The notes under the pieces are model-generated. The model worked only from the letters and a program-made list of their open reading frames with translations, was not told where the DNA came from and made no database searches. Below are positions 1,268-56,771 of a DNA stretch of 64,000 nt, piece after piece. Position 1 is the first letter of the stretch, and each line of letters starts with the position of its first letter. Both the position numbers and the translations under genes were made by a program. Origin of the DNA: Chiloscyllium plagiosum (taxonomy: Eukaryota); assembly GCF_004010195.1 (NCBI RefSeq), contig NC_057719.1, forward strand, positions 43,103,789 to 43,167,788. The letters are read 5' to 3'.

Positions 1268-1578
1268 TTAGACAGATTCCCTACAGTGTGGAAACAGACC
1301 CTTCAGCCCAACCAATCCACACCGACCCTCCGAAGAGTAACCCACCCAGACACATTTCTCCCTGACTAATGCACCTAACACTGGGCAATTTAGCATAGCC
1401 AATTCACCTGACCTACACATCTTTGGACTGCGGGAAGAAACCAGAGCACCCGGAGGAAACCCACGCAGACATGGAGAATGTCTGTGTGGAGTTTGCACAG
1501 TCACCCGAGGCTGGAATCGAACCTGGGACCCTGCTGCTGTGAGGCAGCAGTGCTAACCACTGAGCCACCATGCCACCC
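1268..1578 (-). mobile_element. tRNA-derived V-type SINE (HE1-like)
   Basis: On the minus strand: A box tggctcagtgg, B box ggttcgattcc, V-domain (tgcgtgggtttcctccgggtgctc) and a CR1-like 3' tail. Confidence 0.88.
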
Positions 1579-2158
1579 ACCTATATCCTTTGCAACTATT
1601 TGTATCCTCCTTACAATTTGCTATTCTACCTATCTTTGTTATATTTGTCTAAATATAGTCTATTTGTTCATCTAAGTCAATGATATAAACTGTACATAGT
1701 TGAGGCCTCAGTTCTGAATCCTGGAAAACTCCATTTTGACCCATTTCTCCTGATTCTTCCATTTCCTGTTTAGCCTGTAAAGCAGGTTGACTAATAATTT
1801 GTCACTGCAAACACCATATGGTCTTGTACTGTAAGCTTTTATATGGCATCTTTTATCGAATGCTTTTTGGAAATCCATATATACTACAGCTACTGGTTCC
1901 CTTTCATCCATCCTGCATGCCAAATCCCTCAAAGAACTCTAACAATTTGTCAAACATTATTTTTCTATCCATAAAACCATGTTAACTCCACATGGCTGTA
2001 GAATGATTTTTCTAAACATCCTGGTATTACTTCCATGGGTTTTAGTATTTTCACACTGAAAGATGCTGGGCTAACTGACCAGTTGTTTCCTGCTTGCTCT
2101 CTTCCCAATTCCTTCACTATTTTCTCGAACAGTGGTGCTACATTTAGAGCTTTCTAAT

Positions 2159-3010
2159 TGTGATTTAAGGTATGATATATACATGTTTTAATATCTTAAA
2201 ATAATTTTTATTGAAGTTTAGATTTTGATATAGTGACATGACAGCTTTGGTCTGAGAGCATGATGGAATTTAATGATCGACTTCTCAGTACGTCTGGAGC
2301 TTTTTTAAAACTTAATGTAAAAGAGGCAGTCCCTAGGATGAAGAAATTTGCCTGCATTGGGACAGGTTTGAGCAGACAGAGTAAACATTGAGGCACATGA
2401 GCTTGTTTTATTTTGCTTGGAGGAAAGCCTGCAGCTTAGTAAGGGTTGGGTATTTCTTTTGCAGGAGACCTGATTGGAGTTAGGTCTTTGGAACAGTTCA
2501 TCCTAGAGAAAGGAGTTTATTCAAAAAAGCTGAGAATGAGGTTACCTAAGTGTATGGATTTTACATGAAAACTCCAGACCAGAAAATATTTGGTTAGAAC
2601 CCTGAGGGAATATGAAGTGGAGAAAGTTTAAGTCAATTGTGTAACTCAAGGAAGAGGCTACCAGCCTCTCGAGGTAGAGAATTGAAAGAAACAGTAAAGT
2701 TAAATCTACAGATAGTGAACTCTCTCTGGTGTTTGAGTACAGTAAAGTGATTATGTTGGGATAGATAGGATTGTATTTTTATTCTGTTTCAGAAACTTTT
2801 AAATATTATTATATGTAACAGCTTGGCTTATTCTATTTTGTCTTTCATGTAAATGCTTCTATTTCTATTGATAAGAACAAATCTGTATGTGTACTTACAT
2901 TTCAGTGAAAGATCACCTCATTAGATCTTTTTTTTTTATTTTATTTATTAAGTCGGATTTCAGTCTAGGATCTGAGTTGTCCAGTAATTACATCAGTTGG
3001 GGTCATAACA
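2159..3010. mobile_element. Putative solo LTR (~850 bp)
   Basis: Begins TGTGAT and ends ...ggggtcataACA (TG...CA). Flanked by taat/caat (4 bp, one mismatch). Interrupts the CR1-like sequence, which resumes after 3010. No coding content. Confidence 0.45.
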
Positions 3011-4657
3011 CAATCAGGGGGATCTTTCCAGATTCTAGAGTTATCATGTATCCACTACCACTGCAGCAATATCTTTTAAGGTACATCCTGAGTGCATGCC
3101 ATCAAGGCCTATAATCCTTTCTATCCCATTAGCTTTCCTACTAATTTTGTTTTGGTGTTGTGATTTGCTTTCAGTTCCCCCCCCCCCCCCCTCCCCCTTG
3201 ATAAAACCATAAAGTTACAACATAAAAAGATACCAATCAGCCCACCCTGGCCACTGTAGCTGAATAAACTAGCTGTCCATTTTAATCCTATTTACCAGCA
3301 TCTGGTCTGATAACTTGCAGGTTACTTCAGGTGCGGATCCAGGTTCCTTTCAAATGAGTTGAGGGTTTTTGTCTCAACCACCAAATTAGGCAGGGAATTC
3401 CAGTCACCTGACTACCCTGTGAGGTAAAGGCCTTTTTCTTATGTCCCCTATAATCCTTCTATCAATCAGCTTAAATTTGTGTCCCCCGATAATTGACCTG
3501 TCCACTAGTGTGAACAGATCTTGGACAGTGTGGATGAAGATCTGTAAAGAGGTGTAAAACAATGCCTCATTGTTTTACACCTCCAACTAAGTCACCCCTC
3601 AGCCTCTTCTGCTTTAGAGAAAACAATCCTAACCTATTCAATCTTTCCTCATTGCTGTAATTTTCAAGTACTGGCAACATTTTTGTGAATTTCCTCTAAT
3701 ACTCTCTCAACAGCATTTACATCCTTTCTGTAACGTGGTGACTAAAACTGTACACAACTCCAAGAGTGTCCTAACCAGTGTCACGCATATTTCCAATATT
3801 TCATCCCTGCTCTCGTATTCGATATCCCACCCAACAAAGGAAAACATCCCATGTGCCTTCTTTACCATCTTATCTACTTTATACTGTTGCCGTCAGAAGC
3901 CTTTGGATTTGCACTCCACGATCTCTCATTTCCTCTCCCCTTCTCAGTACACTCCAGTTTATTGTGTATTCCTTTGCTTTGTCTTCTCTCCCCAAAAGCA
4001 TCTAGATTGAATTCCATTTGCCACTCTTCTGGCCATTCAAGTAAACCATCTGTTATCCTACAATCAACAACCACCCTCTTCACAACCTGTTCTATTTTAG
4101 CATCATATGCAGGTTTCTCATCATGACTCCCACATTTCAGTCAAAATCATTTAATATAATCCACAAATGGCAAGGAAGTAAAAGAGAGTCCATTGGAATA
4201 CCACTCGTAATCACTTTCCATTCGTAAAATCATTCCTGGAACAAAATTACCCTTTTGCCTCCAGGAACTGATTTTGGAACCAACTCATCACATTCCTCTG
4301 TATCCCCTGAGTTTTAATTTTCTTATCAGACTGCCATGTAGGACCATGTCATATTCCTTCCTAAAATCCACAGAGACAACATCTAATGCATGACCCTCAT
4401 CAATCCTCCTTGTTATTCTTCAAACTTCAATAAAGTTAGAGTGAGACAACCTTTCCTTAACAAAACCACGCTGACTTTATTTGGTGAGGCTTCGATTAAT
4501 CAAGCAACAGTTAATCCTATCTCTCGACTTTGTTTTTAGTAACTTGTCCAGTAATGACTCCATGCTGACTGCCCTACAATTATTTGGCGCCTCCATCACA
4601 CTTCTTCTGAGTAATGGTACACCATTTGCAAACCTCCAATCCTCTGGAGCCTCACCT

Positions 4658-6092
4658 GTGGAGGCAACGGCCCAGCGGTATTAACCTAGATTATTAGTCC
4701 AAAAGTTGAGCTAATTTTCTAGGGACCTGGATTCAAATCCTGCCATGGCAGATCATGAAATTTGAATTCATTTTTTAAAAAATGTTTGGAATTAAGAATC
4801 TTCTGATGACTGCAACAATTGTCGATTGTCAGAGCAACTTATCTGGCTCACCAATGTCCTTCAGGGAAGGAAATCTGCCATCCTTACCTTGTCTGACCTA
4901 CATTCTGACTCCAGACTCTCAGCAATGTGGTTGACTCTCAACTGGCTTCTGAAATGACCAAGCAAGCCACTCCATTGTATCAATCAATATGAAGTCTCAA
5001 CAAAGAAACAAAACCAGACTGACCACCTAGCATCGACGTAGGCTTCGCAAAGACAAAGGCAGAAACAGCCCTGTCAACCCTGCAGAGCCCTCCTTACCAA
5101 CATCTGGAGGCTGGTGTCAAAATTGGGAGAACTGTCTCACAGACCAGTCAAACGTAAACTCTGGGGACATTTCGCTGAGCATCTCAGCCGGGCCCGCAGG
5201 GGCCTACCTGACCTCCCAGTCACCACCCATTTTAATTCCCCTTCCCACTCCCTCTCTGACATGACCATCCTCGGCCAGCGAATCAGACTGCAAATTGGAG
5301 GAACAGCACTTCATTTTCTGCCTGGGCAGCCTGCAACCCAAAGGACTCAACATTAGGTTCTCCAATTTTAAATAACCTCATTTCCTCAACCCCTGACTCC
5401 CTTTTCAGTCCCTCCCCCTCCCTTCCATTCCTCCGATCGACCCTTCCTTCCAGCTATCAACCGGATTCATTCCTCCCGGCGACCGACCAAGTCGTACCTT
5501 CTACCTGTGCTCACCTATCTCAACCTCACCACCCCACCTCTCTCCCTATCCAAAACCCTCCCCCACCCCCCTTTATCCGCAGCTCCACTTACATCCATCC
5601 CCAGTCCTGAAGAAGAGTTACATGTAAAACATTGACATCTCCACCTCCTGATGCTGCCTGGCTTGCTGTGTTCTTCCAGCCTCCTACCAGTCTACCTTGG
5701 ATTCCAGCATCTGCAGTTTTTTTGTATCTCACAGATAGTCAAGCAACATCCTGACATAGTCATCATCATGGAATCATAACCAATAGATAACATCCCAGAC
5801 AACACCACCACCATCCCTAGGTATGTCCTGTCCCACTGGCAGGATAGACCCAATAGAGGGAGCAGTACAGTGGTTTACAGTCAGGAGGGGGTTACCTTGG
5901 GAGTTCAGGTTAAACATGCGCAAGGAAACCTTCCGCTGATTACCACTTACCATCCTCCCTTGGCTAATGAATCAGTGCTCCTCCATGTTTAACAATACTT
6001 TGAGGAAACGCTGAGGGTAGCAAGTGCACACAATATACTCTGGGTGGAAGATTTCAATGTCCTCCACCAAAAGTGGTTTATTAGTAGCACTA
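4658..6092 (+). mobile_element. tRNA-like head + Deu-type domain contiguous with a LINE AP-endonuclease frame (split by a Penelope insertion)
   Basis: B-box-like ggattcaaatcc at ~4729. Deu-like core aatgtccttcagggaaggaaatctgcc...actccagac...gcaatgtggttgactctcaactg (~4853-4955). Then LTNIWRLVSKLGELSHR|KQHPDIVIIMES...WQDRPNRGSSTVVY...ITTYHPP...WVEDFNV. Confidence 0.7.
5152..5726 (+). mobile_element. Penelope-like element 3' fragment (GIY-YIG remnant + terminal repeat, family B)
   Basis: HFAEHLSRARRGLPDLPVTTHFNSPSHSLSDMTILG; pyrimidine-rich 3' region; decayed hammerhead at ~5607-5634. Imperfect TSD tctcacagaccagtcaa (5135-5151) and tctcacagatagtcaa (5727-5742). Confidence 0.85.
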
Positions 6093-7726
6093 CTATAGCC
6101 CTGTCCTGTTTCTGTTCCTGCCCATGGATCAAATCTGAGGGAACGGCCTAATGCTTCCTGAAACAAACTTCCCTCCCCTAGATTATAACTTACTGTGGAG
6201 CTGAAAAATTTTTTTAAATGGTGTTCCTGTCCAAAAGTGCGTCAAGAAAAGGTAATTATCTGACTCTTAAACTCATGTACGTTGACTTCCATGTCCCTGA
6301 ACAATTTGGTTAAATGTAGCTTTACTGTAGCTAAAGCAAACTGGAAGTTTCCCTCTCCTCACTTACTTGATTCCTAGTTTTAAGGCAAAAACTGTGGGCC
6401 CCTAATGTGGTTAGCAGCCAAACTTTGGGATTGTGAGTTCTGATGTAGCAATGACTCCTATGGAGCTCTGACAAAGCTCTAACAGCTGCCAACTCCTTTT
6501 AAATCATCACATTATTTTTTTAAAAGAAAACGAGTAGATGCATCTTGCTTAACCCAGTGCATGAAACAGCTTTCCCTCCTGCCATTCTCACAGGTTCCAC
6601 CTCTTCACCTGGCTGATCTTAGCAGCTCCTGTGCATAATATACCTTTTTTTTTCTTTTAAAATCTTTTGTTAATATGATTATGGATGATGCTGATTATTT
6701 CCTATCCCTGAGCTGTGATAGTAGACCTTCTACATGAATTGCTGCATTTCTTGATAGCATCAAAAATGATGTTAGAGGTAGGGAATTCTAGAGTTTTTGA
6801 GCCAGTGTTGATGACTTCAGTTAATCATGAATTCGATTCCTGTAAAACGTCTTAAAACATGAAGTTCCCCATCTAGCTCCTAATCTTTTCTTTCATTTTG
6901 TTTGTGCCTGTTTTCTATGGCCTTCTGTGTCTGCCTGAGCCCTTTTGCAGTCTCTGCAGCTCCTACTCTTGTTGAATGAAAATCTCACACGTATTTCTGA
7001 CTCTGGCTATCACAAATTGTAGGTTTTTACAGAAACACGTTAGTAATTATCACATCAATCTGTGTAATTTTCATTCAACCCTATTCAAAAGGAGTCTTCA
7101 GTTAAACCCATTAAGGATGATGGACTGTATAACCCATTCATCCATTTAAGGATTGCACAGCTTCCAACTCTCCAAGCCATTGGGAGCCAGACGACATCAA
7201 GATTTATTCTTGACATTGCAAAACAAGGTAAGGAGCTGCAAAGAAACAGAAGGGGACAACACAGACACAGACAGAGACATACAAAACAGGCATTGACAGT
7301 ACAAGAGAAAAGATTCTTGAACTGGAAACAAACAGGGTGAAATTCAAGGAGCTACAGATAACTTTGTGCACCAAGAGTTTTAAAAAGAATTTAATTCACT
7401 ATTAGCTGAAGTCAGTGTTGTCAGATAAGTGTTTGAACTCCCAATCTTAAAACTATTTGTGTGTGTATATTTTTTTTATATGTGTGTATATATATCACTC
7501 CTTTATCAGCACTGGATTGGAATTCCATACGATGTTCCCATGCAGGGTCCCATTCTATTGATATTTGTTCAAATTTAATTCGGGAGGACTGTTTGAACAA
7601 GCTATTTCCAAATCCCAAGTTTGCCAACCCAACACTTAACCCAATTCACTCACTTTATAGGCTGAATATTAAACTACTAATATACACTTAATTTGTGTAT
7701 TTCTTAGTATTTTTGTTCTATTTCAG

Positions 7727-7853
7727 TCTTGAATTTCCAAGGATGTGGGAAGATGTTCAAGATTTAAATAGTTTGTCCTTAAGGTTTTGTTGGAATGTAT
7801 CTCACAGTCGAGAGAAGCTCCTGTCTACACTTGAAATTGACCAAAATCAAAAG
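7727..7853 (+). CDS. CLBA1: Internal coding exon of CLBA1/C14orf79-like gene (aftiphilin-type clathrin-binding box)
   Basis: Polypyrimidine tract and tttcag acceptor (7721-7726); aag|gtaaga donor at 7854. Encodes LEFPRMWEDVQDLNSLSLRFCWNVSHSREKLLSTLEIDQNQK, matching the aftiphilin/CLBA1 pattern W..(L/V)QD....L...W..SHS..KLL..L.ID. Lies convergent to a CDCA4-type gene, as CLBA1 does in human. Confidence 0.85.
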
Positions 7854-8039
7854 GTAAGAAACTCGATGTATTCCATCAATATATTGTATCAATACTCAAC
7901 TTCACATTTATTTCAGCTTGCTCCTATTTTAAATATCTTCACTGAATTATCATTGCTAAGAGACATGCCATCAAAGCTCTTCAGCTTGCACTCAACAGAT
8001 ATAAGAATACACATTTCAAAGGGAACAGCAATTTATACA

Positions 8040-8435
8040 GCATAGGAAAAGAATGCTGATTAGTTGGCATTGGTCAAGGTATTGTTGTGGTGAATACAAT
8101 ACATGTTTAATTTTTTACAAAAGGCATAACGCCTCAGCGTGTTCATTTTCTTCCTGCAGAGGCCAGGTCCCAGTGTAGGAATCTATGTAGCTTCTAGCAA
8201 GTATAAGTAAGCTAAATTGTGAGCTCAATTGATAACCAGAAATTGGTTGTTAGTTTAATTCTTAGCACATTGCAAATTGTTCAAGTGTTGCCCAAATGTG
8301 AAATCATATCTAATATTGGATATTATGTTCAGAGTCTTGCAAACATAGGATTGTTGAATACAGTAGGTGCTATGCCTATTCGATCACAGGGCTGTCCTGT
8401 TTGATATGATCTACCACTTGTTGATATGTATGGCC
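8040..8435 (-). mobile_element. Old Penelope-like GIY-YIG C-terminal remnant
   Basis: Minus-strand translation gives FGQHLNNLQCAKN...F...LLEAT.I...P.LCRK, the GQHL..N..CA / LEA..I....P.LC pattern of Penelope endonucleases. Confidence 0.55.
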
Positions 8436-8793
8436 TATGTAGTTGACATTGCATTGGTGTTTATGTAAACAATTTGGATGGGAATGTAGGAAGTGTTTTA
8501 ATAAGTTTGTGGATGACACCAAAATTGGTGGTATAGTGGACAGTGAAGAAGATTATTGAAGAGTACAAGGATATTTTGATCAGCTGGGCCAATGGATTGA
8601 GGAGTGGAAGATGGAATTTAATTTAGATAAGTGCGAGATGTTGCATTTTGGTAAGATACATTTAATGGTTGGGCTCTGAGGAATGTTGTGAAACAGACAC
8701 CAAGGGGTTCAGGTATATAGTTCCTTGGAAGTGGTGCCACAGCTGTACAGGGTGGTGAAGAAGACATTTGACACACTTGCCTTCATTGGTCAG

Positions 8794-8931
8794 GATGTGG
8801 AGGTGCTGGTGTTGGACTGGGGTGGACAAAGATAAAAATCACAAGATTTTTTAAATCAAAAAGACAAAAATGGAAGCTTGTACTTCCAAATAAACCTGTT
8901 GGACTATAACCTGGTATTGTGTGATTTTTAA
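8794..8931. mobile_element. Short fold-back insertion, probably a third Penelope terminal-repeat family (C)
   Basis: 13-bp TSD cttcattggtcag at 8781-8793 and 8932-8944. Inverted aaaaatcaca/tgtgattttt ends, with a one-sided tail on the left. No hammerhead core is retained. Confidence 0.65.
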
Positions 8932-9374
8932 CTTCATTGGTCAGACCATTGAGTATAGGAGTTGGGACTTCATGTTGTAGCTGTACAGGACATTGGTGAG
9001 ACTGTTTTTAGAATACTGCACACAATTCTGGTCGCTGTACTATTGAAACATAGTCATTAAACTAGAATGGGTGCAGAAAAGATTTACAAGGATGTTGCCA
9101 GGACTGGAGGGTTTTGAGTTATAATGAGAAGCTGGATAGGCCGGGACTTTTCTCTCTAGAGTGTTAGGAAGCGAAGGGATGACCTTATAGAGCATATAAA
9201 ATCATGAGAGACATAGATAAAGTGAATAGCAAAGGTCTTTTCCTCCAGAGTAGGTGAATCCAAAACCAGAGGTTGTAAGTTTAATGTGAGAGGGGCAAGA
9301 TTTAAATGGGACCTGAGGGACAACTTCTTCACAAAAACAGTGGTGACTATATGGATTGAGCTGCCAGAGGAAGT

Positions 9375-9583
9375 GGACGAAAGTGGGTACTGCAGATGCT
9401 GAAGCTTAGAGTCAAGATTAGAATAGTGCTGGAAAAGCACACCAGGTCAGGCAGCATTCGAGCAGCAAGAAAATCGACGTTTCGGGCAGAAGCCCTTCAT
9501 TCATTCCTGATGAAGGGCTTTTGCCTGAAGCATTGATATTCCTGCTCCTCGAATGCTGCCTGACTTGTTGTGTTTTTCCAGCG
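9375..9583. mobile_element. Fold-back Penelope-derived insertion (family A-related)
   Basis: TSD agaggaagt at 9366-9374 and 9584-9592. Inverted arms around 9500. Partial or decayed hammerhead cores at 9476-9500 (-) and 9507-9534 (+). Confidence 0.82.
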
Positions 9584-9668
9584 AGAGGAAGTAGTATAGG
9601 CGATTACAATTTTAACATATAAAAAACATTTGGACAGGTACACGGATAGGAAAGGTTAAGAGGGTCAT

Positions 9669-10258
9669 AGATTAGAGTAGCTTTTATTTGTCATTTCTAC
9701 CGTACAACTGGTACAGTAAAAACGAGAGAGTGTTCCTCCAGGACCGAGGGTGCTACATGGATAGCACAAACTATACAATCGTCCACGGCATAAAGTGCAT
9801 AACAGGTGCAAAACACGCAAGTTACAGTGTAATAGAAAAATTATAAAAAATATTTTTCTACCAGCAATTCGATGTCATGCAAAGAATTTCAGATGGGAAA
9901 GATACTGATTGCACTATGTTAAGGAGCCTGATAGCTTGGGGAAGAAACTGTTGCATGATCTGGCCCTGAGAGACCGAATGCTCCGGTATCTTCTGCCAGA
10001 TGGCAGGAGGGAGAAGAGTTTGAGTGAGGGGTGTGTAGGGTCTTCCACAATTCTCTTAGCCTTTCAGATGCAGCTTATGGTGTAAATGTGCTAATGGAGG
10101 GGAGAGAGATCCCGATGATCTTCTCAGCTGTCCTCACTATCCGTTTTAGGGTCTTATGATCCGAGACGGTGCAATTCCCCAATCAGGCAGTGATGCAGAA
10201 GCTCAGGGTACTCTCGATGAACCCTTTGTAGAATGTGGTGAGGATGGGGTTGGGAGGT
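9669..10258 (-). mobile_element. Rex1/Babar-type LINE 3' fragment
   Basis: The minus strand encodes TTFYKGFIESTLSFCITA.LGNC and LLPSGRRYRSI, typical of the Rex/Babar ORF C-terminus, followed by a 3'UTR with aataaaa. Confidence 0.72.
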
Positions 10259-11693
10259 TTCCATTTAGGAAACCTGGTCAACATGGACAGGTTGGACCGA
10301 AGGGTCTGTTTCCGTGATATATGACTCACTGATTACCAGCATGTCTTTTTAGCTTGGCAGCAGTATTCGTCAGGTGGAAAATGCCATTTGTGTTGCTACT
10401 GCATTGTAGCAAGGTGATATTATTAACTTGGCCTGTTGCCCCAAATTTTGGGATACCTTGCCCTTCTGAGCACTTTTAGGTTTAAAAGTAAGGATAATCA
10501 GTTGTTAGAAGTAAATGGTCGTTCAAAAAGTAAGAACTCCTATGTCATGGCATGGAACTGTTTTTTCTATAACCAGGTTCTTGATTTAATGTCTCATGCA
10601 TTTGTGACAGTGCAGGTTATATGTTCTGGAGTGGAGCTTGAACACCCAATCTTATGACTCTAAAGTAAACGTACTGCCATTGATTCAAAGTCCACATGAA
10701 TGGAAAAAAAATAACTTCACACTTTATTTAATTCATAAAGATGATGATTATTGTGCATTTGACACCTCATTTATGAAACTACAACATTGTACTGTTTAAC
10801 ATTTACTAATAAATGAGGACATACACACACTGGTACGGTCCAGTTCTGCCAGATCCAAAATAAATCCAGTTACGTGGAAGAGATTAAAAAGTTTACCAGG
10901 AGGTCAAAGCTAACATATAATGCCAGCGATAAGCTTTCTTATAGATCTAAATGCCACATCTAGGAAGGAGGTACAATCTAAAGTTGGTTTTCTCTGTATT
11001 GACACCTTAGGTAAATGCAGACTGTTTGAATAGGTTTTGAGATTTAACAGGGAATGTTAATTTATTTTAAGAAAGTGCCATCTTCAATGCCATTATTGTT
11101 TTTCTCCAGGAATATCCTGGAGATTAATCTTTAAATCCTGGCAATTGCAAGAAAATCCTGGGATCTAGCAACCATCAGTGAAACATTATAAGGCCTGTCT
11201 CCCACACCAATGGTTGGTCAGTATGGCAGATGCATCAATTTTGTGTATTGTGGACAAGACTCAGCACAAACTATGCCGTTAGATAGTTATGATATGACTA
11301 CAAGTGACCAGTGTTGGAGTAAAATGAGAGTGGAGAGAGCAAAATGGAGAAATAGTGAGATTGTAAGGCTCAGGAAGTTTGGAGGTTGGGAAGAATAATG
11401 CCAAGAAGCAATTCAAATACATGAATTGTTCATTTTAATGGTTGTATCTGTGAGAGAATATAGAGAAAGTAGCAAGGTAAGAATGTTGTCCGAAAACACA
11501 CAAGCTCTCTGTGAATTCAATTTGGATAACATTGAATTAAAAGTGCATAGCTGTCTGAATGAAAAGTAAATTTCATTAAATTTTATCCAACTGAATTACA
11601 GTTTTACAATTAACTAGTGCACCTTTCTTAATGTACAGGTGTTCACTGAGTTCTATTTAGAAACATCTCTGGTTTGTTCCTTTAAAAATGTAT

Positions 11694-12043
11694 GTGGCAC
11701 GGTGGCTCAGTGGTTAGCACTGCTGCCTCACAGCTCCAGGGACTGGGGTTCAGTTCCACCCTGGGGTGACAGTCTGTGTGGAGTTTACACATTCCCTGTG
11801 TCTGTATGGGTTTCCTCTGGGTGCTCCAGTTTCCTCTTGCATTTCAAAGCTGTGCAGGTTAGGTGGAATGGCCATGCTGAATTGCCCATGGTGTCCAGCT
11901 GTCTACAGTCTAGGTGGGTTAGCTATAAGAAATGCAGGATGGCAAGTTAGGGGGTGGGTCTGGGTAGGATGCTCTTCAGAGGATCAGTGTAGACTCGGGT
12001 GGAACGGCCTGCTTCTACGTTGTAAGGATTCTATGATTCCATG
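11694..12043 (+). mobile_element. tRNA-derived V-type SINE (HE1-like)
   Basis: ggcacggtggctcagtggttagcactgctgcctcacagc head, V-domain and gattctatgatt tail. Confidence 0.88.
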
Positions 12044-24374: not shown

Positions 24375-24792
24375 CTGGTTAGAGATTTTTTTTTAAAACC
24401 TGCAGGTGCTGGAACCCAAGGTAGACAAGCAGGAGGCTGGGAGAACATAGCAAGCCAAGCAGCATCAGGAGGTGGAGAAGTCAACATTTCTGGTGTGCCT
24501 GCAGTTCAGGACTGGGGGTGGGTAGTAGGGGAACTGCAGTTAAAGCTGGTGGGGGGCAGGGTGGTGAGGTGGGGCTAGGTGAGGACAGGTAGAGGGTATG
24601 ACCTGGTTGGTCAATGGGAAGGATGCATCCAGTTGGTAGGTGGAGGATCACCTCACCAACCTGCTCCGCTATCCCCTTTAACTGCAGCTCCCCTTGCCCC
24701 CACCCCTACCCCCTGAAGAAGGGTTACACCCAAAACTTTGACTTGTCCACCTCCTAATGCTGCTGGCTTGCTGTGTTCTTCCAGCCTCCTGC
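24375..24792. mobile_element. Fold-back Penelope-derived insertion (family B)
   Basis: Inverted arms meeting near 24648; same repeat as 5450-5720. Flanks taatcatccatcc (24362-24374) and taaccatccatcc (24793-24805). Decayed hammerhead at 24713-24739. Confidence 0.78.
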
Positions 24793-25227
24793 TAACCATC
24801 CATCCTTAGCTGCTCTGAGAAGGTGGTAGACCTTTTGTATGAACCACAGGAGCAGTTTTATGCTACTGACCAATTGACAAGGCAGCTACTTGTCAACATT
24901 AATGTTTGGCTGGAGTTACGTAAAAGTAAGTTTTCCTTCCCTAAAGGATATAGGTGAACTTACTAAAAAATCAGCCAACGGAATGGTTGCTTTATTGATA
25001 TTTATTTCCAAATATTTAAAAACTGTATTTGAATTCTCAGCTGCAGTGGCAGGAAGTGAACTCCTGTTTGCTGAGTTGATACTATAGTTTCTGTACTGTA
25101 GTTTAATAATAGCCAATACACTACTGTAACCCCATGATATTTTGGGGGGTTCATTTAATTTGTGTCTAGTTCTTTACAATGTTAATGTGAATATTGTATG
25201 TGTTATATTGATACTTTGTCAATGCAG

Positions 25228-28200: not shown

Positions 28201-28286
28201 TGTCTCCAGGATCACTAATGCACTTTAAGAAAACAGACAAGTTGAACTATAAGAAATGCCTTGATTTATTTTTGTTTGTTCAGAGG

Positions 28287-28615
28287 ATCATAGAATCCCT
28301 ACAGTGCAGAAAAATGCTATTCAGCCCATTGGGTCTGCACTAACCCTCCAAAGAGCATCCCACCTTATCCCCTTGACCCCATATTTATCATAGTTAACCC
28401 ACCCAGGCTGCATATTCCTGCACACTGCTGGGCAATTTTAGCATAGCCAATCCACTGAACCTACACCCCTTCAGACTGAGGGAGGAAACCAGAGCACATG
28501 GAGGAAGCCCACATAGACATGGGGAGAATGTGCAGACTGCACACAGACAGTTGCCCGAGGCTGGAATTTGAAACCACTGGTGCTATGAGGCAGCAGTGCT
28601 AACCACTGTGCCACC
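28287..28615 (-). mobile_element. tRNA-derived V-type SINE (HE1-like)
   Basis: Reverse complement of the 11694 family, somewhat diverged. Confidence 0.82.
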
Positions 28616-28924
28616 AGACTTCTATTTGTTGTTTATAATGATTAAATTTTAAAATAATGTCTTTAGTTAAAATGGGGAAAAAGATGGGTTGATCATTGGA
28701 TTGGTTGATCTGTGTTTTTTGTCTGTTCACTTGTCTGTGTGGGTTGGTCACCAGTCTGTGTTTTTGTCTGTTCACTGATCTGTGTTGCTGTGTTTGATTC
28801 TTTAGGCCTGTGGGTAGAGCTTGGACAGCTGACACCAGTCGAGAGGATTCTGTAATCTGAGCTAATGCCATGAGTTTTGCCATCTTGTGATTGCTGACAC
28901 ATTTGTAAGGAACTGAAATAATTG

Positions 28925-32777: not shown

Positions 32778-32934
32778 AAAAATGTGTTGCTGGAAAAGCG
32801 CAGAAGCCTTGAAGAAGGGCTTATGCCCGAAACGTCGATTCTCCTGCTCCTTGGATGCTGCCTGACCTGCTGCGCTTTTCCAGCAACACATTTTTCAGCT
32901 CTGATCTCCAGCATCTGCAGTCCTCACTTTCTCC
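32778..32934. mobile_element. Penelope-derived insertion with a short inverted arm (family A)
   Basis: TSD tgcttgtccttgatg (32763-32777) and tgtttatccttgatg (32935-32949). Hammerhead-like core at 32809-32836 with C3 changed to T. Confidence 0.83.
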
Positions 32935-33704
32935 TGTTTATCCTTGATGGTGAGCTGCCTTATTGAATTGCTGCAGTCTATGTGGCATAAATGCATCCAT
33001 TGTACTGCTGAGAAGCAAATATCAGGATTTTGACTCAGCAGCAGTAAGGGTACAGTAATGGTGTTCAAAGGCAGAATGCATTGTGACTTATGGGAAACTT
33101 GCAAGTTGAAGTGTCACTTGCACCTGCTGCTTTATGCTTCTGGCTGGTATGGGTTGTAAGGTGCAATCTCAGTAGGTTTGGTGAGTCGCTGCAGTGCATC
33201 TTGTACAGAACACATGCTGCTGCCACAGTATGGTGGTGGTGGAAGGAATGAATGTTGAGGCTGGTGGATGGAGTGCCAACCAAATGGGTTTGATCTGGAA
33301 TATGTTAAACTTCTGGAATGTGGTTAGAGCTGCACTTAATCGATCAAATGGAAAGTATTCCACTGCAATCCTGATTTGTCCCTTGTAATTTAATCTATTA
33401 CAGGGGAGGAACCGAGAGCTGTGCTGGTGAAGTGGGTCTGGGTGTCTTCAATAAACATGTGGAACCAGTCAGCATGGCTTTTGGATGACGTCACTGAGGG
33501 TCAGCAAGAAGATCAGGATAAATTCCAGATGTAACAATAAAGGAGTCAGAAGACATGCTTTGTTTTAATTCTTTCATAACTTTGCTAACACGTTAAGCTT
33601 GCTGTAAATTATGGGACAAGCTTTGGGGAATCAGGAGCTTAGTTGCTCATCTCAGAATTTACAACCTCTGACCTGCACTTGTAGTTGTTGTATTTATTTG
33701 GCTA

Positions 33705-34184
33705 GGCGAAAGTGAGGATTGCAGATGCTAGAGATCAGAATCAAGATTAGAGTGGTACTGGAAAAGCACAGCAGATCAGGCAGCATCCGAGGAGCAGGAA
33801 AATCGACGTTTCGGGCAAAAGTCCTTCATCAGGAATGAGGCAGAGAGCCTCCGAGGTGGAGAAATGAATGGGAGGGGTGGGGCTGGGGAGAAGGTAGCAA
33901 AGAGTGCAATAGATGGATGGACATGGGATGAAGGTGTTAGGTTGGAGAGGAGGGTGGAGCGGATAGGTGGGAAGGGAGATTGGCAGGTAGGACAGGTCAT
34001 GAGGATGGTGCTGAGCTGGCAGGTTGGGACTGGGGTAAGGGGGGGTGGGAATGAGGAAACTGGTGAAGTCCAAATTGATGCCTTGGGGTTGGAGTGTTCC
34101 GAGGCAGAAGATGAGGCGTTCTTCCTCCAGGCATCGGGTGGTGAGGGAGTGGCGGTGGAGGAAGCCCAGGACCTGCCTGTTCTC
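33705..34184 (-). mobile_element. Penelope-like element 3' end (GIY-YIG C-terminus + terminal repeat)
   Basis: QVLGFLH...TTRCLEEERLIFCLGTLQPQGINLDFTSF on the minus strand, followed by a pyrimidine-rich region, hammerhead and tail. Confidence 0.88.
33805..33832 (-). ncRNA. Hammerhead motif in a Penelope 3' terminal repeat (one stem II mismatch)
   Basis: The minus strand reads CTGATGA-A-GGAC tttt GCCC-GAAAC-GTC, downstream of the GIY-YIG C-terminus. Confidence 0.65.
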
Positions 34185-35907: not shown

Positions 35908-38900
35908 ATGGCTAAGTGGCTTATTAAATGTACACCTGGAACATTAAGGGAAGTCATTCGCCTATTAAAAGGAAAAAAGTGCTTTCTAGTCTTAAAAAGG
36001 AAAGGGATGATATCGCTTTGTTGCAGGAAACCCATCTTGATGATGGGGAACACCTGAAACTATAACAGGGGGGTTATGACCGGGTATTCTTTTCATCCTT
36101 TACTACTAAAAGTAAGGGAGTAGTCCAGAAAAATCTTCCGTTCACATTATTAGAGCAGGTGAAAGATGAGCAGGGACGGTTTGTGATACTTAAAGCCCTG
36201 ATACATGGGGAGGAATATGGCATTTTAAATGTCTACTGTCCTCCGTCACATCCCCTCAAATTTAATTAGTGCTTTCTCTAAGTTGAGTGCTTTTGGAACA
36301 CGGCACATTATTATAGGGAGGGGTTTAATTGTCTTTTGGATCCGACAATGGACAGGATGCCTTGTGGGCCCCCAACTATTTCTTCGCAGGCCAAGCAGGT
36401 GGTTGACTTATGCGAGGAGTTGGGGCTGGTGGATATTTGGAGATGTCTTCACCCTACGGTCAGGGACTTCACCTTTTTTTCAAACCCACATAAATGTCAC
36501 GCAAGGATTGACCTCTTTCTGGCTCCCTCGGCCCTTCTGGATTTGATTATGGGTTGCAAAATTTGGAATATAGCTGTCTCTGATCATGCGGCAGTATATT
36601 TGGAGGTTAAGGCCAAGAGTGAAGGACTAGGTTTGCGGCATTGGCATTTGGACCCCTTTCTCCTTAAGGATTCCAAATTTGTGGACTACTTTTTGAAGGA
36701 GTTTCAGGAATTCTTGACTATCAACTCAGGCACGGCTAGTAGTCCGTCCATGCTATGGGAGACTGCTAAGGCCTTTGCTAGGAGATTAGCTATTTCCTAT
36801 TCGGCTAGCCGGAAACAACAGAAGGAGGAACAACAGCGTCTACTTGAGACGTGGTTGAAAGCCGCGGAGGCAGCACATTTTGCGCAGCCTTCGGTGATTA
36901 AGCTACAGCGGATCACAGCCCTTCGGGCTGCCTTGAATTCAATACTGACACAAAACGCAAAGAAAGAACTTGCTTTTGCTTGACAGAGGCTGTTCGAATA
37001 TGGGGATAGGCTAGGGAAATATTTAGCGTACCTGACTCAGAAAAAGTGTGCTTCCCAATCCATTACTGCAATCAGAGACAGCATCGTATCTTTTTACATA
37101 CGATGCTAAAAAGATTAATGAGGCTTTTCGGAGCTTTTACTCTGAATTGTATCAGTCTGAAGGTTGCGAAGATAGGAGGGCTAAAATGGAGACCTTTTTT
37201 AAGAACTTGGACCTCCCAGGGGTAACCTTGGAACAGGCCTCTCTCCTTAATGCCCCCTTGACAGTTCAGGAAATACAGGAGGCAGCTAGGCAACTTCAGA
37301 GTGGGAAAGCGCCTGGCCCTGATGGTCTTCTGGGTGAGTTTTATAAGGAGTTGATAGGGATTCTGTCAGGACTGATGTTGGAGATGTACAATCACTCCTA
37401 TATGCATGAATGTCTACCACCATCTTTGAGAGAAGCTAATATTTCCCTAATTCGTAAGAAGGGAAAGGTTCCTGAGGATTGTGCCTCATGCAGGCCCAGG
37501 TCCTCTAATAATATTAGAAGGTAGCTGAATGTGGTCCAAGTTTGTCAGCAACGATTGATTCAGGGGTTGGTGATTTCCTTAGATGCAGAGAAAGCATTTT
37601 ACCGGGTGGAATGGCTGTATCTTTTTTATTTCTTAGAACAGTTCGGATTGAGTGGAGTCTTTGCTCGGAGTGTGGAGGTTTTATATCGCCACCCTCTGGC
37701 TGCAGTCATCACCAATGGGGTGAAGTCTTGGAATTTTACGATTGGTTGGGGTAGTCACCTTCTCACCATTGTTGTTTACATTGGTGATAGAGCCGCTGGC
37801 AGAGGCTATTCATCAAAACGTCCACATAACTGCTCCGGAAGTGGGATCGAGGGCACACAAGATTACATTGTACGCGGAAAATGTCCTTCTGTTTTTATCG
37901 AACCCGATCACCTCCGTACCCCATTTGATACAATGTATCAATTCATTTGGGGCTATTTCTGGATATAAGATTAACTTTGCAAAATCAGAGGCAATGCCTT
38001 TGGGGAACCATAAGGATGTGCCAGAAGTTGAAGGTGGCTCTAAGTTCCCTTTTAAGTGGTCACGGGCAGGATTCCGATACCTTGGCATTTTTATTACCCC
38101 CAAGTTTGATCTGTTATTTCAGGCTAAGTTTGCTCACTTGCTCGACAATATTAGGCAGGATCTCCAGAGATGTGAGGCTCTTCCAATTTCATGGCGGGCC
38201 GAATATCTCTCATTAAGATGAATGTTCCTCCTCGTTTGCTTTATCCAATGCGTATGCTCTCTATAATGTCTCCCAGGTCAACACTGCAGAAACTTATGGG
38301 TTGGTTTAGTTCCTTTGTCTGGCATCGTGGGTGGCCCCTCATCAAACTTACTAAATTGCAGTTGCCTCAAGGAGTGGGGGGAGTTGATTTCCCAGACATC
38401 AGGAGGTATCAATTGAGTTCCCTGCTGTCCTTTGTCTGCGATCGGGAAGGTAACGATCCAAAACTCAATATGGCTGGATATTGAGGCCTCCCAAGCAAAG
38501 TGCCCTCTTATTAACCTAGTGTTCATGGATAAGATGAGGATAGTTATGGACCACTGCCGGAAAACCATTGTCATTAGTACAGTCAGGACTTGGAGGGTGA
38601 TGCGTCAGAGTGAGGGTGGTTTATCCAAGACATTGCCACTTACATCTATAGTTGGCATGCCAGGGTTCTGACCAGGGATGATGGACTCAGGGTTCCAACT
38701 ATGGGTAGCGAGAGGAATTTCTAGTTTGGGAGACTTGTTTGAGGGTGAGGTTATGATGTCTTTTGAGCAACTGAGCCGCAAATATGGGCTGCCCAGCAGA
38801 GACCTTTTCCATTTTTTTTCAGGTTAGGAATTTCATCCAGAAGAAGACTACGCTTCTCACTAAGCCCTATAAGCCCGATACAGAGAGGTTGTTGCTAGGT

Positions 38901-42099: not shown

Positions 42100-45000
42100 T
42101 TTTTTTCTTCCTGGCAGTCTACTTGGTAATTTAGAATAGCGGGAATGGAGGTTAAGGCAGTTGAATGTTCCTCCTGCAGTTTGTGGGAGGTAAGGGTCAC
42201 TGCTAGTGTCCCTGCTGACCACTTGTGGAAGTGCACTCAACTCCAGCTCCTCCAGAACCGTGTTAGGGAACTGGAGCTGGAGTTGGATAAACTTCGGATC
42301 ATTCAGGAGGCAGAGGGGTTATTGAGAGAAGTTACAGGGAGTTAGTTACTCAACAGCCACATGAAGAAGGTAGATGAGTTACCGTCAGGGGTAGGAAAGG
42401 GAATCAGGGCAGTGCAGGGACCTCTTGTGGTGGTTCCCCTCAACAACAAATATACCGTTTTGGATACCATTGCAGGGGATGACTTACCAGGGGTAAGCAA
42501 TGGGGCACAGGTCTCTGGCCCAGGGTTTGTCCCTATTATTCAGAGGGAAAAGGGAAGAGGAGCAGAGCTTTAGTCATTGGGGACTCCTAGTTAGGGGGAC
42601 AGATAGAAGGTTTTCTGGGAACAACAGAGACTCACGGTTGGTGTGTTGCATTTCAGGTGCCCGGGTTTGTGATGTCTCTGATCGTAATTTCAGGATCCTT
42701 GAGGGGGAGGGGGAACAGCCCCAAGTCATGGTTCACATAGGCACCAACGAGATAGATTTCCCATCTTTCTTCCTACCTAAGGCAGAAATTCAGGGAGCTA
42801 GCATGGAAGCTTAGAGCTAGTACAAACAGAGTTGTCATCTCTGGTTTGTTGCCTGTGCCACATGTTAGCGAAGTGAGGAACAGGGAAAGAGTGGAGCTGA
42901 GCACATGACTGCAGGGATGGTGCATGAGTGAGGATTTTGGATTCTTGGATAATTGAAGCTATTTCTGGGGAAGGTGGGACCTCTAAAAACAGGATGGTCT
43001 TCACCTGAATCTGAGGAGTACCAATATCCTTTTTGGGGGGGGGGTGGAGAAGGGGATTTAAACTAATGCAGCAGGGGGATGGCAACCTGAATTCTAGTTC
43101 CAGTGTACAGGAGGTTGAGAGTAGTGAGGTTGGGGATAGGTTTACAAGGTTGCGAGAGAGCACCAGCAATCAGGATGTTGGTTTGAAATGTGTGTACTTC
43201 AATGCCCAGAGCATCCAGAATAAGGTGGGTGACTTGCAGCATAGGTTGGTACCTGGGATTTCAATGTTGTGACCATTTCGGAGACATGGCTAGAGGAGGG
43301 TCAGGAATAGTTGTTGCAGATTCTGGGATTTAGATGTTTCAGCAAGAACAGGGAAGATGGTAAAAGAGGCGGGGGTGTGGCATTGTTAATCAAGGGTAGT
43401 ATTACAGCATCCACGGAGATCATTTGGGCTGAAGTTAGAAACAGGAAGCGAGAGGTCAGCTTGTTGGGAGTTTTCTATATTCCTCCAAATTGTTCCAGGG
43501 ATGTAGAGGAAAGGATAGCAAAGATGATTCTCGATAGGAGCGAGAGTAACAAAATTGTTGTTATGGGGGATTTTAACTACCCAAATATTGACTGGGAATA
43601 CTATAGTTCAAGTACTTTAGATGGGTCAGTATTTGTTCAATGTGTGCAGGAGGATTTTCTGACAGAGTGTATCAACAAGGCGTGATGCCATATTGGATTT
43701 GGTACTGGGGAATGAACCCAGCCAGGTGTTAGATTTGGAGGTAAGTGAACAATTTGGCAATAGTGATCACAATTCGGTTATGTTTACATTAGCAATGGGC
43801 AGGGATAGATATATACCATAGGGAAAGAGATATAACTAGGGGAAAAGCAATTATGACAATTAGGCAAAATTTAGGATGGGGAAGGAAACTGCAGTGGATA
43901 GACACTCTTGAAACGTGGAGCTTATTCAAGGAACAGCTACTGCGGGTCTTCGATAAGTACATACTTGTCAAGCAGGGAGGTAGTTGTCGAGAGAGTGAGC
44001 CATGGTTTACTAAAGAAGTTGAAGCTCTTGTCAAGAGGAAGAGGAAGGCTTATGTGATGATGAGGCATGAAGGTTCAGTTAGGGGGCTTGAGAATTATAA
44101 GTTAGCCAGGAAAGATCTAAAGAGAGGGTTAAGACGAGCCAGGAGGGGACATGAGAAGTTGTTGGCGAATAGGATCAATGAAAACCCCAAGGCCTTCTAA
44201 AGTTGTTGGCGAATAGGATCAATGAAAACCCCAAGGCCTTCTAAGGTATATCAGGAATAAAAGAATGACTAGTGTAAGGTTAGGGCCAATCATAGATAAA
44301 ATTCGAAAGTCGTGTGTGGAATCGGAGGACATAGGGGAAGCCCTTAATGAATACCTTTTGTCAGTATTCACATTGCCCTTTTCCAATATTACTGAGAATA
44401 CAGGCTAGAAGATTAAATGGGATTGAGGTTGACAGCGAGGAAGTTTTAGCAATTTTGGAAGATCTGAAATAGGTAAGACCCCGGGGCTGGGTGGGATTCA
44501 GCCTCAGATTCTCTGGAAAGCCAGGGAGGAGAATGCAGAGTCTTTGCTTCGATCTTTATGTCATCATTGTCTACAGGAGTAGTGCCAGAAGACTGGAGGA
44601 TAGGAAATGTTGTTCCCTTGTTTAAGAAGGGGAGTGGCAACAACCCTGGTAATTATAGGCCAGCGAGCCTTACATCAGTTGTGGGTAGGGTGTTGGAAAA
44701 GGTTATAAGAGATAGAATTTTTAATCATCTGGAAAGGAATAATTTGGATTAGTCAACACAGCTTTGTGAAAGGTAGGTCATGCCTCACTAATCTTGAGTT
44801 CTTCGAGAAGGTGACAAAACAGGTTGGATGAAGGTAAGGCAGTGGATGTGGTGTACATGGACTTCAGTAAGGCATTTGATAAAGTTTCAAATGGTAGGCT
44901 ATTGCACAAAATACGGAGTTTCGGGATTTAAGGTGATTTAGCAGTTTGGATCAGAAATTGGCGAGCTGAAAGAAGACAGAGGGTGGTGGTTGATGGGAAA

Positions 45001-45973
45001 TGTTCATCCTGGAGCTCAGTTTCCAGTGGTGTGCTGCAAGGATCTGTTTAGTGGCTACTGCTGTTTTCATTTTTATAAATGATCTAGAGGTGGGTATGGA
45101 AGGATGGGCTATTTACCTATCTTATTGTCATCTGCCAAGTTGAGTTGCGAATAGTGCCAAAGGATAAAATGCAGAGCTGGGCTGAGAAGTGGCAAATGGA
45201 GATTAATGCGAAAAAGTGTGAGGTAGTTACATTTGGAAGAAGTAACAGGAATGCAAAGTACTTGGCTTATGGTAAAATTCTTGGCAGTGTAGATGAACAG
45301 AGAGATCTTGGTGTCCAGGTGCAAAAATCCCTGAAAGTTACCACCCAGGTTGATGGGGTTGTTAATAGAGCATATGGTGTGTTGGCGTTTATTGGTAGGG
45401 GTATTGAGGTTTGGAGCTATGAGATCATGCTGCAGCTGTACAAGACACTGGTAAGGCCGCTCCTGGAGTATTGAGTGCAGTTCTGGTCACTTCAATATAG
45501 GAAGGATGTGGAAGGTTTGGAAAAAGGTTCAGAAGAGATTCACTAGGTGTTGCCTAGCATGGAAGGAAGGTCTTACGAGGAAAGACTGAGGGAACTGAAG
45601 CTGTTTTCATTGGAGAGAAGGTGGTCGAGAGGTGACTTAATCGAGATGTAGCAGGTAATCAGAGGGTTAGATAGGGTGACAGTGAGAGCCTTTCTCCTCG
45701 AATGGTAAAGGCTAACAGGAAAGGGCAGAGCTTAAATTGAAGGGTGATAGATTTAGGACAGATATCGGGATAGTTTCTTTACTCAGAGTAGTAGAGGCGT
45801 GGAATGGTCTGCCTACAACAGTTGTAGACTCGCTAACATTAAGGGCATTGGACATATATATGGGAAATAATGGAATGGTGTAGGTTAGATGGACATCAGA
45901 TTAATTTTGCAGGTTGGCACAACATCGAGGGCCGAAGGGCCTGTACTGTACTGTAACGTTCTATGTTCTATGT
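42100..45973 (+). mobile_element. Near-full-length CR1-clade LINE (ORF1 zinc finger/leucine zipper + SGNH esterase; ORF2 APE-RT), decayed
   Basis: MEVKAVECSSC...LQLLQNRVRELELELDKLR; VHIGTNEI; CVYFNAQSIQNK; MGDFNYPNIDW; VPEDWRIGNVVPLFKKG...NYRPASLTS; LVRPLLEY; 3' tail (ttctatg)n at 45959-45973. The 5' boundary is approximate. Confidence 0.9.
44156..44243 (+). repeat. Perfect 44-bp tandem duplication inside CR1 ORF2
   Basis: aagttgttggcgaataggatcaatgaaaaccccaaggccttcta at 44156-44199 and 44200-44243. Confidence 0.95.
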
Positions 45974-54031: not shown

Positions 54032-54520
54032 ACAATGGAGGAAACAGTCAACATTGATGCCAATGGAGGCACATTCAGACAATCTCTTAGTATAATTCAA
54101 TTTTGTTTTCATACAATCATTAAACACTATTTCTCTCCTCAGTTGTATTTGTTCCAGATTTTAACAGTAAAGCCATTCACGAAATTATTTGTTCATGTTG
54201 GTAATTCAGAAAGCATAAAGAAACGTTACTTTAACCAAGGAAGATAAAATATTAACATTAAAAGTCTTTATCTCACCATTCAATAATATTGTGATAGTAT
54301 TGTCTTCATATTGCATTGCATTGTCTGAATCAGTGTACAATTTGCAAAATGTGGTTCATCCAATCATTAGAATTACCACTGTGTGCTAAATTGTATTCTT
54401 GTGCAGCTTTCATATGAATTTTCTATTCCTACCTTCATATGCATTTCCTTGTAGTAGTCTTTCAATACCTTAGAATAGTTTTTACAGGAAATGTTTGAAA
54501 TAAAAAGACAATTTTTAAAA

Positions 54521-54792
54521 ATTCATTCACGGGATGAAGCCATTGCTAGCTAGGCCAGTATTTATTGCCCATCCCTAATTAAGTATCAACTGCACTGCTG
54601 TGGGTCTGGAGACACATGTAAGCCTTTCCTTCCCTAATGTCCTTGAAGGAGGGAAAACTGTTCTGGCCTACATGGGACTCCAGACCCACAGCAATGCGGT
54701 TGACTCTTAAACCACCCTCTGTGTAATTAGGAAAGGGCAATAAATGTTGGTCTAGCCAGCAACACACACATCCAGTGAATGAATTTTTTTTT
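54521..54792. repeat. Palindromic (head-to-head) pair of Deu-type SINE 3' halves
   Basis: Left arm 54521-~54632 is the approximate reverse complement of right arm ~54645-54784. Each arm has part of the Deu-like core and the LINE-derived tail. Confidence 0.75.
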
Positions 54793-55924: not shown

Positions 55925-56767
55925 TTAGGATCCTACAAGAATTTCCATGATATGGTCCAGGTCACTCAAATCTACTCTGCAGATCTGAATGGTGTTCACT
56001 GACGCAGAGTTGCATAACTGAAAGGGTTTTGAAACATCATCCACGCTAGCTGGTGGTGTTCTAGCAGGTGTTAATGGAAGTAAGCACAGATCTGAGTCAT
56101 ACATGGACGTGTCAATGTCTTCAAATATGTCATCAAAAGCAAGATCTGTTAGGTAACTCGTTGAATTTGTGATTTCAAAAGAGCCAAACACAGTTTCTGC
56201 AGGCCTAGTTTCTTGTGGTCTGTCTGCCAAAGAAATGTCTGAATTTGGGTCATCTTCACCTGCAGGTGCAGGACAAGGAGATGGGCTAATATCCTCCATG
56301 AAATCCAAATCTTTAAGGATTGATGAAATGGCGGATGACATGTCATCATCTGAAACAACTACTAGAGAGTTCTCAATCTGATTTTCTGAAAAATCTGAAG
56401 AAATATTCAAATCCAGAGAACTGTTTTGAATGGTTGATGGTGTTCCAGTTAATTCAATACTGGCCTGAGATGCTGTATATGAGTCTGGAACTGGGCTTGT
56501 TCCACTGCAGATATTAGATCCTTCTTGACTGCTTTCTTGCCTCATTTCCTCCTGGATCTGCCGAACAGTATTTGCGATAAGGACAGAACGGTGCAAGTTT
56601 GGTTCCACCAGCATCCGACAGCTTTGCAATTTGATAAGGCACATATTAAGTACCAACTGTCTCTGCAAAGTGTAGGGCAGCCCTGGGTTAGAATCAAAGG
56701 CACCAGGAACACCAGCCATATTTTCTTCGTAATCACTAAGCTTGCGCTTCAGTCCTTTAGCCAACAT
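55925..56767 (-). CDS. CDCA4: SERTA-domain protein, CDCA4/TRIP-Br3 type (CDCA4 or a CDCA4-like paralog), 280 aa, single coding exon
   Basis: Intact ORF. N-terminal GLKRK motif, SERTA domain (YTLQRQLVLNMCLIKLQSCRMLVEPNLHRSVLIANTVRQIQEEM), acidic DDIFEDIDTSMYD box and C-terminal DLSDLDHIMEILVGS, all typical of SERTAD/CDCA4. MLVEPNL.RSVLIANTVRQIQEEM is CDCA4-like rather than SERTAD2-like. The family call is firm; exact orthology is not. Confidence 0.85.
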   Translation of the reverse strand: MLAKGLKRKLSDYEENMAGVPGAFDSNPGLPYTLQRQLVLNMCLIKLQSCRMLVEPNLHRSVLIANTVRQIQEEMRQESSQEGSNICSGTSPVPDSYTASQASIELTGTPSTIQNSSLDLNISSDFSENQIENSLVVVSDDDMSSAISSILKDLDFMEDISPSPCPAPAGEDDPNSDISLADRPQETRPAETVFGSFEITNSTSYLTDLAFDDIFEDIDTSMYDSDLCLLPLTPARTPPASVDDVSKPFQLCNSASVNTIQICRVDLSDLDHIMEILVGS

Positions 56768-56771
56768 GAAT

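Follow-up and report, generated by a model that had tools for sequence, protein, structure and literature searches.

The sequence at 4662-6097 of the 64,000-nucleotide stretch of DNA analysed here (the window) is a decayed 5′ fragment of an elasmobranch Zenon LINE of the CR1 group, a name that follows the extracts of PMC13343379 consulted and not an RT tree. The joint explanation that we favor, at a probability of roughly 0.78, is that this LINE begins with a tRNA-like head that was gained, that short forms derive from it and that the window copy later received an insert and lost its 3′ part. The head itself is very probably the true 5′ end of the Zenon LINE. For the autonomous element, with one ORF and a length of about 3.3 kb, the published consensus rows and the paralogues together show an order that would read head, conserved body, short linker, a single endonuclease-RT frame without ORF1, 3′ UTR and tail. 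The window copy is dead, interrupted and 3′ truncated. The family consensus has already been published, and what is new is the reading of its 5′ end.

Layout of the element at 4662-6097

The element sits in an older LINE fragment (3576-4661, reverse strand), presumably of CR1 type, which matches 44500-45740 at 57% over 1.1 kb; fragments related to it gave RVT_1 matches. Flank-spanning contigs from runs labelled as organisms A, B and C carried this locus, both of its ends being alike, which makes the Zenon insertion at 4662 old. We found no duplication enclosing the whole unit at 4662-6097, the longest shared word being 5 nt. Nor was there a tail within 500 bp past about 6097, near which the Zenon copy stops and from which depth is single-copy. 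The window copy inserted into the older LINE, later took up an insert of 575 bp and lost all sequence past about 6097. Elsewhere in the window, an intact ORF of 291 codons (55928-56800, reverse strand), whose SERTA motif exceeds the Pfam cut-off, is probably a host gene of the SERTAD type.

The tRNA-like head occupies 4662-4770 (forward strand). We scanned the window for the generally known A- and B-box consensus, allowing at most one mismatch per box, and found the A box at 4668-4678, separated by 51 nt from a B box at 4730-4740; each departs from the consensus at one position. In 60 shuffles of the window, such pairs averaged 0.03 per shuffled sequence, so the tRNA-like head with a B box described in the first-pass annotation is present beyond chance. 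In this respect the element has, at its 5′ end, the pair of boxes that marks a Pol III unit, and the tRNA- or 5S-derived type of head with Pol III boxes that is typical of DeuSINEs. ARAGORN found no tRNA at the head and Rfam returned nothing near its gathering score, and the term tRNA-like therefore rests on the boxes. Folding of the head, body and tails did not go beyond that of shuffled sequences (z = −1.6, −0.5, −1.1 and +0.5). The head aligns colinearly with the opening letters of the elasmobranch Zenon rows in print, and a hand count gave 84 of 109 columns identical to RhiTyp_Zenon-1.

Four loci in the window were picked out by the box scan, namely this head and three that belong to a different SINE family, whose box spacing is 33 nt. 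Members of that family, which we take to be HE1/V-SINE, lie at 1264-1576 (−), 11693-12037 (+), 28279-28616 (−), 47585-48043 and 57967-58297 (+). A head fragment at 60530-60642 (reverse strand) has boxes 52 nt apart and is by eye nearer to the SquAca rows than to the RhiTyp row; its alignment to the 4662 head was not above shuffles, and it may represent an older subfamily. Twin-priming inversion was considered for this fragment and dropped, since other repeat sequence follows it and not 1 kb of the element.

An A/T-rich spacer (4771-4852, forward strand) leads from head to body. It is colinear with the published rows by eye, and the loose-end consensus of paralogues past 4770 resembles them. 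The conserved body (4853-4975, forward strand) is common to the short SINE-form copies: the sequence at about 4853-4975 matches 54636-54710, with 42 of 50 letters identical over the best stretch. It had been described as a Deu-like core, and this description was not borne out. Two published Deu motifs, at up to three mismatches, were unmatched in 4658-6092; motif 1 had eight matches in the window against a chance mean of 5.0, none of them inside the element, and motif 2 had none in the window. We know of no likeness of the body to a CORE or V domain. By eye, it also had no likeness to the alignment of AmnSINE1 213-343 and EbuSINE1 in Fig. S4 of PMC7245038, a comparison that covers about 130 of the 330 bp of the vertebrate domain and does not include the SacSINE1 consensus. 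Judged by sequence over those 130 or so bp, the body is distinct from the published Deu domain, and because it is unlike that domain, the proposed link to SacSINE1 and AmnSINE1 and to a Deu origin falls. In Fig. S2 and S4 of the same source, only a 9-letter word was common to UCON3 and the body, and nothing was common to the Meta domain and the body, both by eye. The short, noncoding head-body-tail organization of a DeuSINE is likewise absent, the body running into a coding frame without a tail. None of the bivalve SINE supplements searched contained the body motifs. A 19-letter body motif had two metagenome and two bacterial matches, which we took as chance and not as relatives; L001 and L002 had no further likeness by eye.

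Downstream of the body lies a linker specific to the LINE form (4976-5098, forward strand). Its depth is of about the order of that of the endonuclease and more than 100 times that of the unique flank, predicted proteins P0003, P0016 and P0028 read through it, and its 3′ half codes for a run of basic residues in the endonuclease frame. As had been noted, no SINE tail lies between body and endonuclease, the score for a tail there being at shuffle level (315 of 500 shuffles were as good). The absence of ORF1 between the head unit and the endonuclease was confirmed as well, the endonuclease coming directly after the linker.

The first AP endonuclease codons (5099-5151, forward strand) were placed from the translated frame and from homologue matches. 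All of the endonuclease peptides that had been quoted are present and in one frame, but that frame is interrupted, which had been passed over: about 575 bp of another repeat lie between NIWRLVSKLGEL and PDIVIIMES. The rest of the N-terminal half of the endonuclease (5732-6097, forward strand), placed from homologues, contains two stops and is followed by the truncation. Assignment to the AP type held up in the homologues, of which P0001 matched PF03372 (E 0.0014) and fell among endonuclease/exonuclease/phosphatase clusters of the Atlas at 0.95, while P0011 was over the PF14529 cut-off. Pfam gave no match for the decayed endonuclease piece itself, and a PDB search returned no endonuclease.

The intervening sequence (5152-5726, forward strand) is the 3′ piece and tail of an unrelated dispersed repeat, presumably Penelope/GIY-YIG-like, and is a later insertion. 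Its flanks are duplicated (5135-5151 and 5727-5742, 15 of 17 letters identical) as a target-site duplication, and a joined form in run X10, passing from 5136 to 5736 with 11 letters between, represents the preinsertion state. The Atlas gave no name for the insert's peptide. Relatives of the insert lie at 24395-24790, at 33720-34129 and elsewhere in the window. The same repeat family also interrupts the 25-kb short copy (24380-24800) and the 60.7-kb LINE (62236-63274). Its tails often form inverted or tandem pairs (1-600, 9380-9580, 32780-32935 and 63086-63265), and its contig alignments contain 36-nt back-steps.

Recurrence of the junction and the tie to the LINE at 60735-63705

Supplementary Table 2 of PMC13343379, in the extract consulted, has 10 Zenon rows, of which seven are elasmobranch (from five species), two are from hagfish and one is from coelacanth. 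We compared the first 400 letters of each row, that is, the 5′ ends and not head-to-tail continuity. The seven rows from sharks and a ray (CarCar, HypSab, RhiTyp, ScyCan and SquAca-1 to -3; 2,886 to 3,314 nt) all open with the same head, spacer, body and linker, and those of HypSab and SquAca-3 reach the start of the endonuclease within these 400 letters. Head, body and linker are not at the start of the two hagfish rows and the coelacanth row. Among the more than 900 rows of the table (first 400 letters each), two body motifs occurred in exactly these seven, and the window copy is colinear with the consensus, by eye, over 400 letters. The LINE consensus therefore does not have a different 5′ end with an ORF1 of its own; the seven elasmobranch rows start at the head, a consensus head that may be dominated by the far commoner short copies. 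The six readable cells of Table S3 in the same paper give copy denominators of 2,313 (CarCar), 1,419 (RhiTyp), 612, 396, 294 and 59; intact ORF2 copies number zero to three per family, and endonuclease and RT coverage is high for most.

The junction recurs in contigs and gene models too. Depth in run X1 was 1,782 to 7,217 in linker bins and 1,382 to 10,226 in endonuclease bins, compared with 9 to 20 in unique flank bins, and the pattern was similar in runs X9 and X10; contigs were aligned at 80% likeness, and depth gives an order of magnitude and not a copy number. One paralogue, about 80% identical, spans 4920-5106 (X9 record 19), and another spans 4980-5148 (X1 record 2). Four of the 28 HMMER-matched predicted proteins (P0003, P0016, P0019 and P0028) combine body or linker with endonuclease; kept among the 28 are P0025 and P0027, which are likely compositional chance matches, and P0026, a distant endonuclease. 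When 10 of the 28 were looked up, seven proved to be separate whale shark gene models and one a horn shark model. Gene models can splice separate repeats together, which is likely for P0003 and P0019, and P0016 and P0028 weigh the most because they run straight from linker to endonuclease. Protein word searches gave no match for the decayed endonuclease piece, returned only P0004 for P0001 and only itself for the translated P0019 body, and yielded no full-length ORF2; the viral contigs searched gave no match. P0011, a horn shark RefSeq model named "CWC25 homolog," has pieces of the Zenon endonuclease and RT region at its N terminus and is probably a prediction artefact.

The junction is thus not unique to this locus, recurring as it does in published rows, paralogous contigs and whale shark gene models. 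A SINE lying by chance beside a LINE fragment, or a consensus extended into an abundant SINE, would fit with the dense and nested repeats of the window and with the way in which automatic consensus ends can absorb their neighbors. This explanation is nevertheless largely refuted, and we give it next to no weight: junction and linker are alike in the rows of five species, in paralogous contigs and in separate gene models, the linker is repeated at endonuclease-like depth, and a SINE tail is absent ahead of it.

A 5′-truncated copy of the same LINE, with RT region, 3′ UTR and tail, lies at 60735-63705 (forward strand); it is interrupted at 62236-63274 and gave a weak RVT_1 match. Whether the endonuclease and this LINE are one family had been left open from the window by itself. 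Six of the 28 proteins match both the endonuclease and 60735-61700 (P0002, P0005, P0011, P0017, P0021 and P0023, two of them weakly), which links the two as one family and ties the RT to the AP endonuclease in a single ORF without ORF1, as in Zenon. At 63705 the LINE copy closes with no more than a short A-rich stretch, and the 4662 copy has no 3′ end. An assembly gap (a run of N) occupies 62556-63085, inside the insert of the 60.7-kb copy. A further RT fragment at 37724-38218 (forward strand; RVT_1 E 2e-6) was unmatched to the two LINE families examined.

Many copies with the order head, body, LINE and tail would likewise arise if a target-specific LINE inserted into a SINE between its body and tail, the head then being flanking DNA. 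We regard this as very improbable, given the 5′-truncated copies with 3′ UTR and tail at 60735, 51354, 17752 and 32945-33288 and given that a scan of the window left head and body unmatched in sense orientation beside the 5′ ends of truncated copies.

Short forms, the gain of the head and its probable role in transcription

Part of the body is joined to the LINE tail in a short form at 54636-54785 (forward strand), recognized from the body match and from a tail score that none of 500 shuffles reached; the resemblance of the 54.7-kb tail to the LINE 3′ end, pointed out earlier, thus holds. A second short form (54520-54620, reverse strand; body and tail, 0 of 500 shuffles) lies head to head with the first and has another body-to-tail junction. 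The two make an imperfect palindrome at 54520-54785, possibly through fold-back during insertion. A very old copy of head and body, apparently followed by the LINE 3′ end, lies at 24803-25123 (reverse strand) and agrees in 178 of 290 columns; its head and body were matched by 0 of 500 shuffles, and its 3′ part is weak (16 of 500). Junctions differ among these three body-plus-tail copies in the window, which fits repeated internal deletion or later decay, three copies being too few to tell which way the derivation first ran.

Head and body bins in run X1 ranged from 16,592 to 281,448, far above the 1,782 to 7,217 of the linker, and the coding region is therefore missing from most copies of the 5′ part, although depth is not copy number. 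The abundant short elements share head, body and tail with Zenon; they would be Zenon without its coding middle, mobilized by the Zenon protein. Of the original proposal of a single-ORF LINE with a SINE-like unit, head and body as the LINE 5′ end stand, and the Deu identity of the unit does not. The head itself appears from sequence comparison to be a gain in the shark and ray lineage, because the Zenon-derived SIDE of Lepidoptera is without tRNA homology and the rows from hagfish and coelacanth open differently. An ancestor of shark and ray Zenon would have gained the head in place of its own 5′ end, most likely by a template switch onto tRNA-derived RNA or a SINE during reverse transcription.

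Placed at the very start of the element, the head would be copied at every full-length retrotransposition. It is most likely an internal promoter, since a promoter of that kind has to be part of the RNA that is copied and the head is where all seven rows begin; we consider it probable that the head acts in this way. We find it doubtful that the translated RNA comes from RNA polymerase III. If it did, as a subcase of the favored explanation, TFIIIC would bind the A and B boxes and Pol III would read the whole 3.3 kb, the sense strand avoiding T-runs and the uncapped RNA being translated cap independently via the body. Zenon would then be an autonomous coding LINE transcribed end to end by Pol III, T-run free, translated without a cap through its body and shedding SINEs by deletion, a picture that we consider less likely than not.

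The position of the boxes at the extreme 5′ end in the rows of five species speaks for such a Pol III LINE, as do the counts of TTTT. By eye, TTTT was absent from the first 400 letters of the seven headed rows in the extract of the published table and occurred several times in those of the three nonheaded rows. It was also absent from the 366-nt endonuclease piece at 5732-6097 and from the best-kept window copy over 1,922 nt (shuffles averaged 4.0; P of zero, 0.014), but that copy was picked after the counts had been made. The density was 2.1 TTTT per kb in 16 Zenon fragments against 7.2 in nine CR1-type fragments, but base composition differs between the two, and the pooled depletion in Zenon was not significant (13 seen, 17.7 expected, with 14% of shuffles as low). 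One CR1-type TTTT site was present in seven of seven copies, and three of six Zenon TTTT sites were common to two old copies. Two T-runs in the head of the window copy, near 4715 and 4771, are absent from the published rows. RNA run X22 yielded two reads among 8.3 million records, both on the insert, and has no bearing on expression. Uncapped RNA is poorly translated, which also counts against a Pol III LINE. Extracts of PMC10886601 and PMC5786205, moreover, state that LINEs are transcribed by Pol II and tie SINE length to the processivity of Pol III.

Translation of uncapped RNA would not be called for if head-driven Pol III RNA served as the template and the protein came from capped Pol II read-through of other copies. 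That arrangement would explain both the kept boxes and the few T-runs, and according to the part of bioRxiv 10.1101/443036 consulted, whale shark CR1-Zenon copies are often intronic (39%). Without cis preference, however, selection for an ORF on headed copies would be weak, yet the fused form is found in sharks and a ray, and we find this arrangement decidedly improbable.

Possible, though in our view unlikely, is a 5′ part of a SINE captured once, with a Pol II promoter in the body, linker or flank driving the LINE and with the boxes persisting through their use by short copies, which exchange sequence with the LINE. The head is more variable than the body between species (by eye), as a mere passenger might be, and all characterized LINEs use Pol II according to the extracts of PMC10886601 and PMC5786205. 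An ATG at the body end (window 4954), which could be an ordinary start, is in the endonuclease frame in the CarCar, HypSab and ScyCan rows in a hand reading of the published extract. In those three rows, however, it meets a stop at codon 3, and it is out of frame in the RhiTyp row and in the window copy, where codon 3 is a sense codon. In addition, every round of retrotransposition would remove a head lying upstream of the true start, yet each of the rows opens with the head.

Comparison with known systems

LINEs and SINEs are divided by promoter, Pol II and coding as opposed to Pol III and noncoding, in the extracts of PMC3531059, PMC10886601 and PMC5786205. A LINE whose tRNA-type head has stayed at position 1 in sharks as well as in a ray offers a natural way to test this promoter rule and also the idea that SINE bodies derive from LINE 5′ ends; a coding Zenon transcribed by Pol III and shedding SINEs would, if true, close the divide. 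For annotation, repeat maskers will split full-length headed copies into a SINE and a LINE.

The closest relatives of the window copy are the elasmobranch Zenons themselves (CarCar_Zenon-1, RhiTyp_Zenon-1, HypSab_Zenon-1, ScyCan_Zenon-1 and SquAca_Zenon-1/2/3), which in the extracts of PMC13343379 have the same 5′ sequence over 400 letters. They likewise have a single endonuclease-RT ORF and no ORF1; there is no structural difference, except that the window copy is decayed. According to the same extracts, elasmobranch Zenons were absent from repeat repositories and were identified in the whale shark assembly. The main text of that paper, as far as available, contains "tRNA" and "promoter" zero times and "SINE" once, in the references. 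The literature searched, a scope without Repbase Reports, Dfam and most subscription papers, contained no description of a tRNA-headed shark LINE, and the head of the published Zenons has apparently gone unremarked in print.

Lepidopteran Zenon and its SIDE, Persaeus (PMC6740152, in extract), also pair a Zenon LINE with an abundant derivative made from its 5′ and 3′ ends, but Persaeus lacks both tRNA homology and a Pol III promoter, whereas the common 5′ end of shark Zenon has A and B boxes. DeuSINEs (SacSINE1, LmeSINE1, AmnSINE1 and EbuSINE1) likewise have a tRNA-type head, a conserved body, a LINE-derived tail and a shark host. Over the part of the published Deu alignment compared, their body differs from that of Zenon, and the tail of SacSINE1 is described, in the sources consulted, as L2-2_CM-like or CR1-4_DR-like and not as Zenon. 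Cassandra, Helenus and Ajax (TRIMp3) resemble headed Zenon as non-SINE retrotransposons with a small-RNA Pol III promoter, but they are short noncoding LTR elements, and the author argues, in the extract of PMC10886601, that their autonomous partners must use Pol II. Bov-tA, SINE2-1_ACar and the SINEs derived from RTE and Vingi (extracts of PMC5786205 and PMC4494074) likewise consist of a tRNA head with LINE 5′ and 3′ parts, the source LINEs of such bipartite SINEs being RTE, Ingi, Vingi and R2 (PMC5786205). In these systems the tRNA head is on the SINE only, whereas in shark Zenon it is on the autonomous LINE too.
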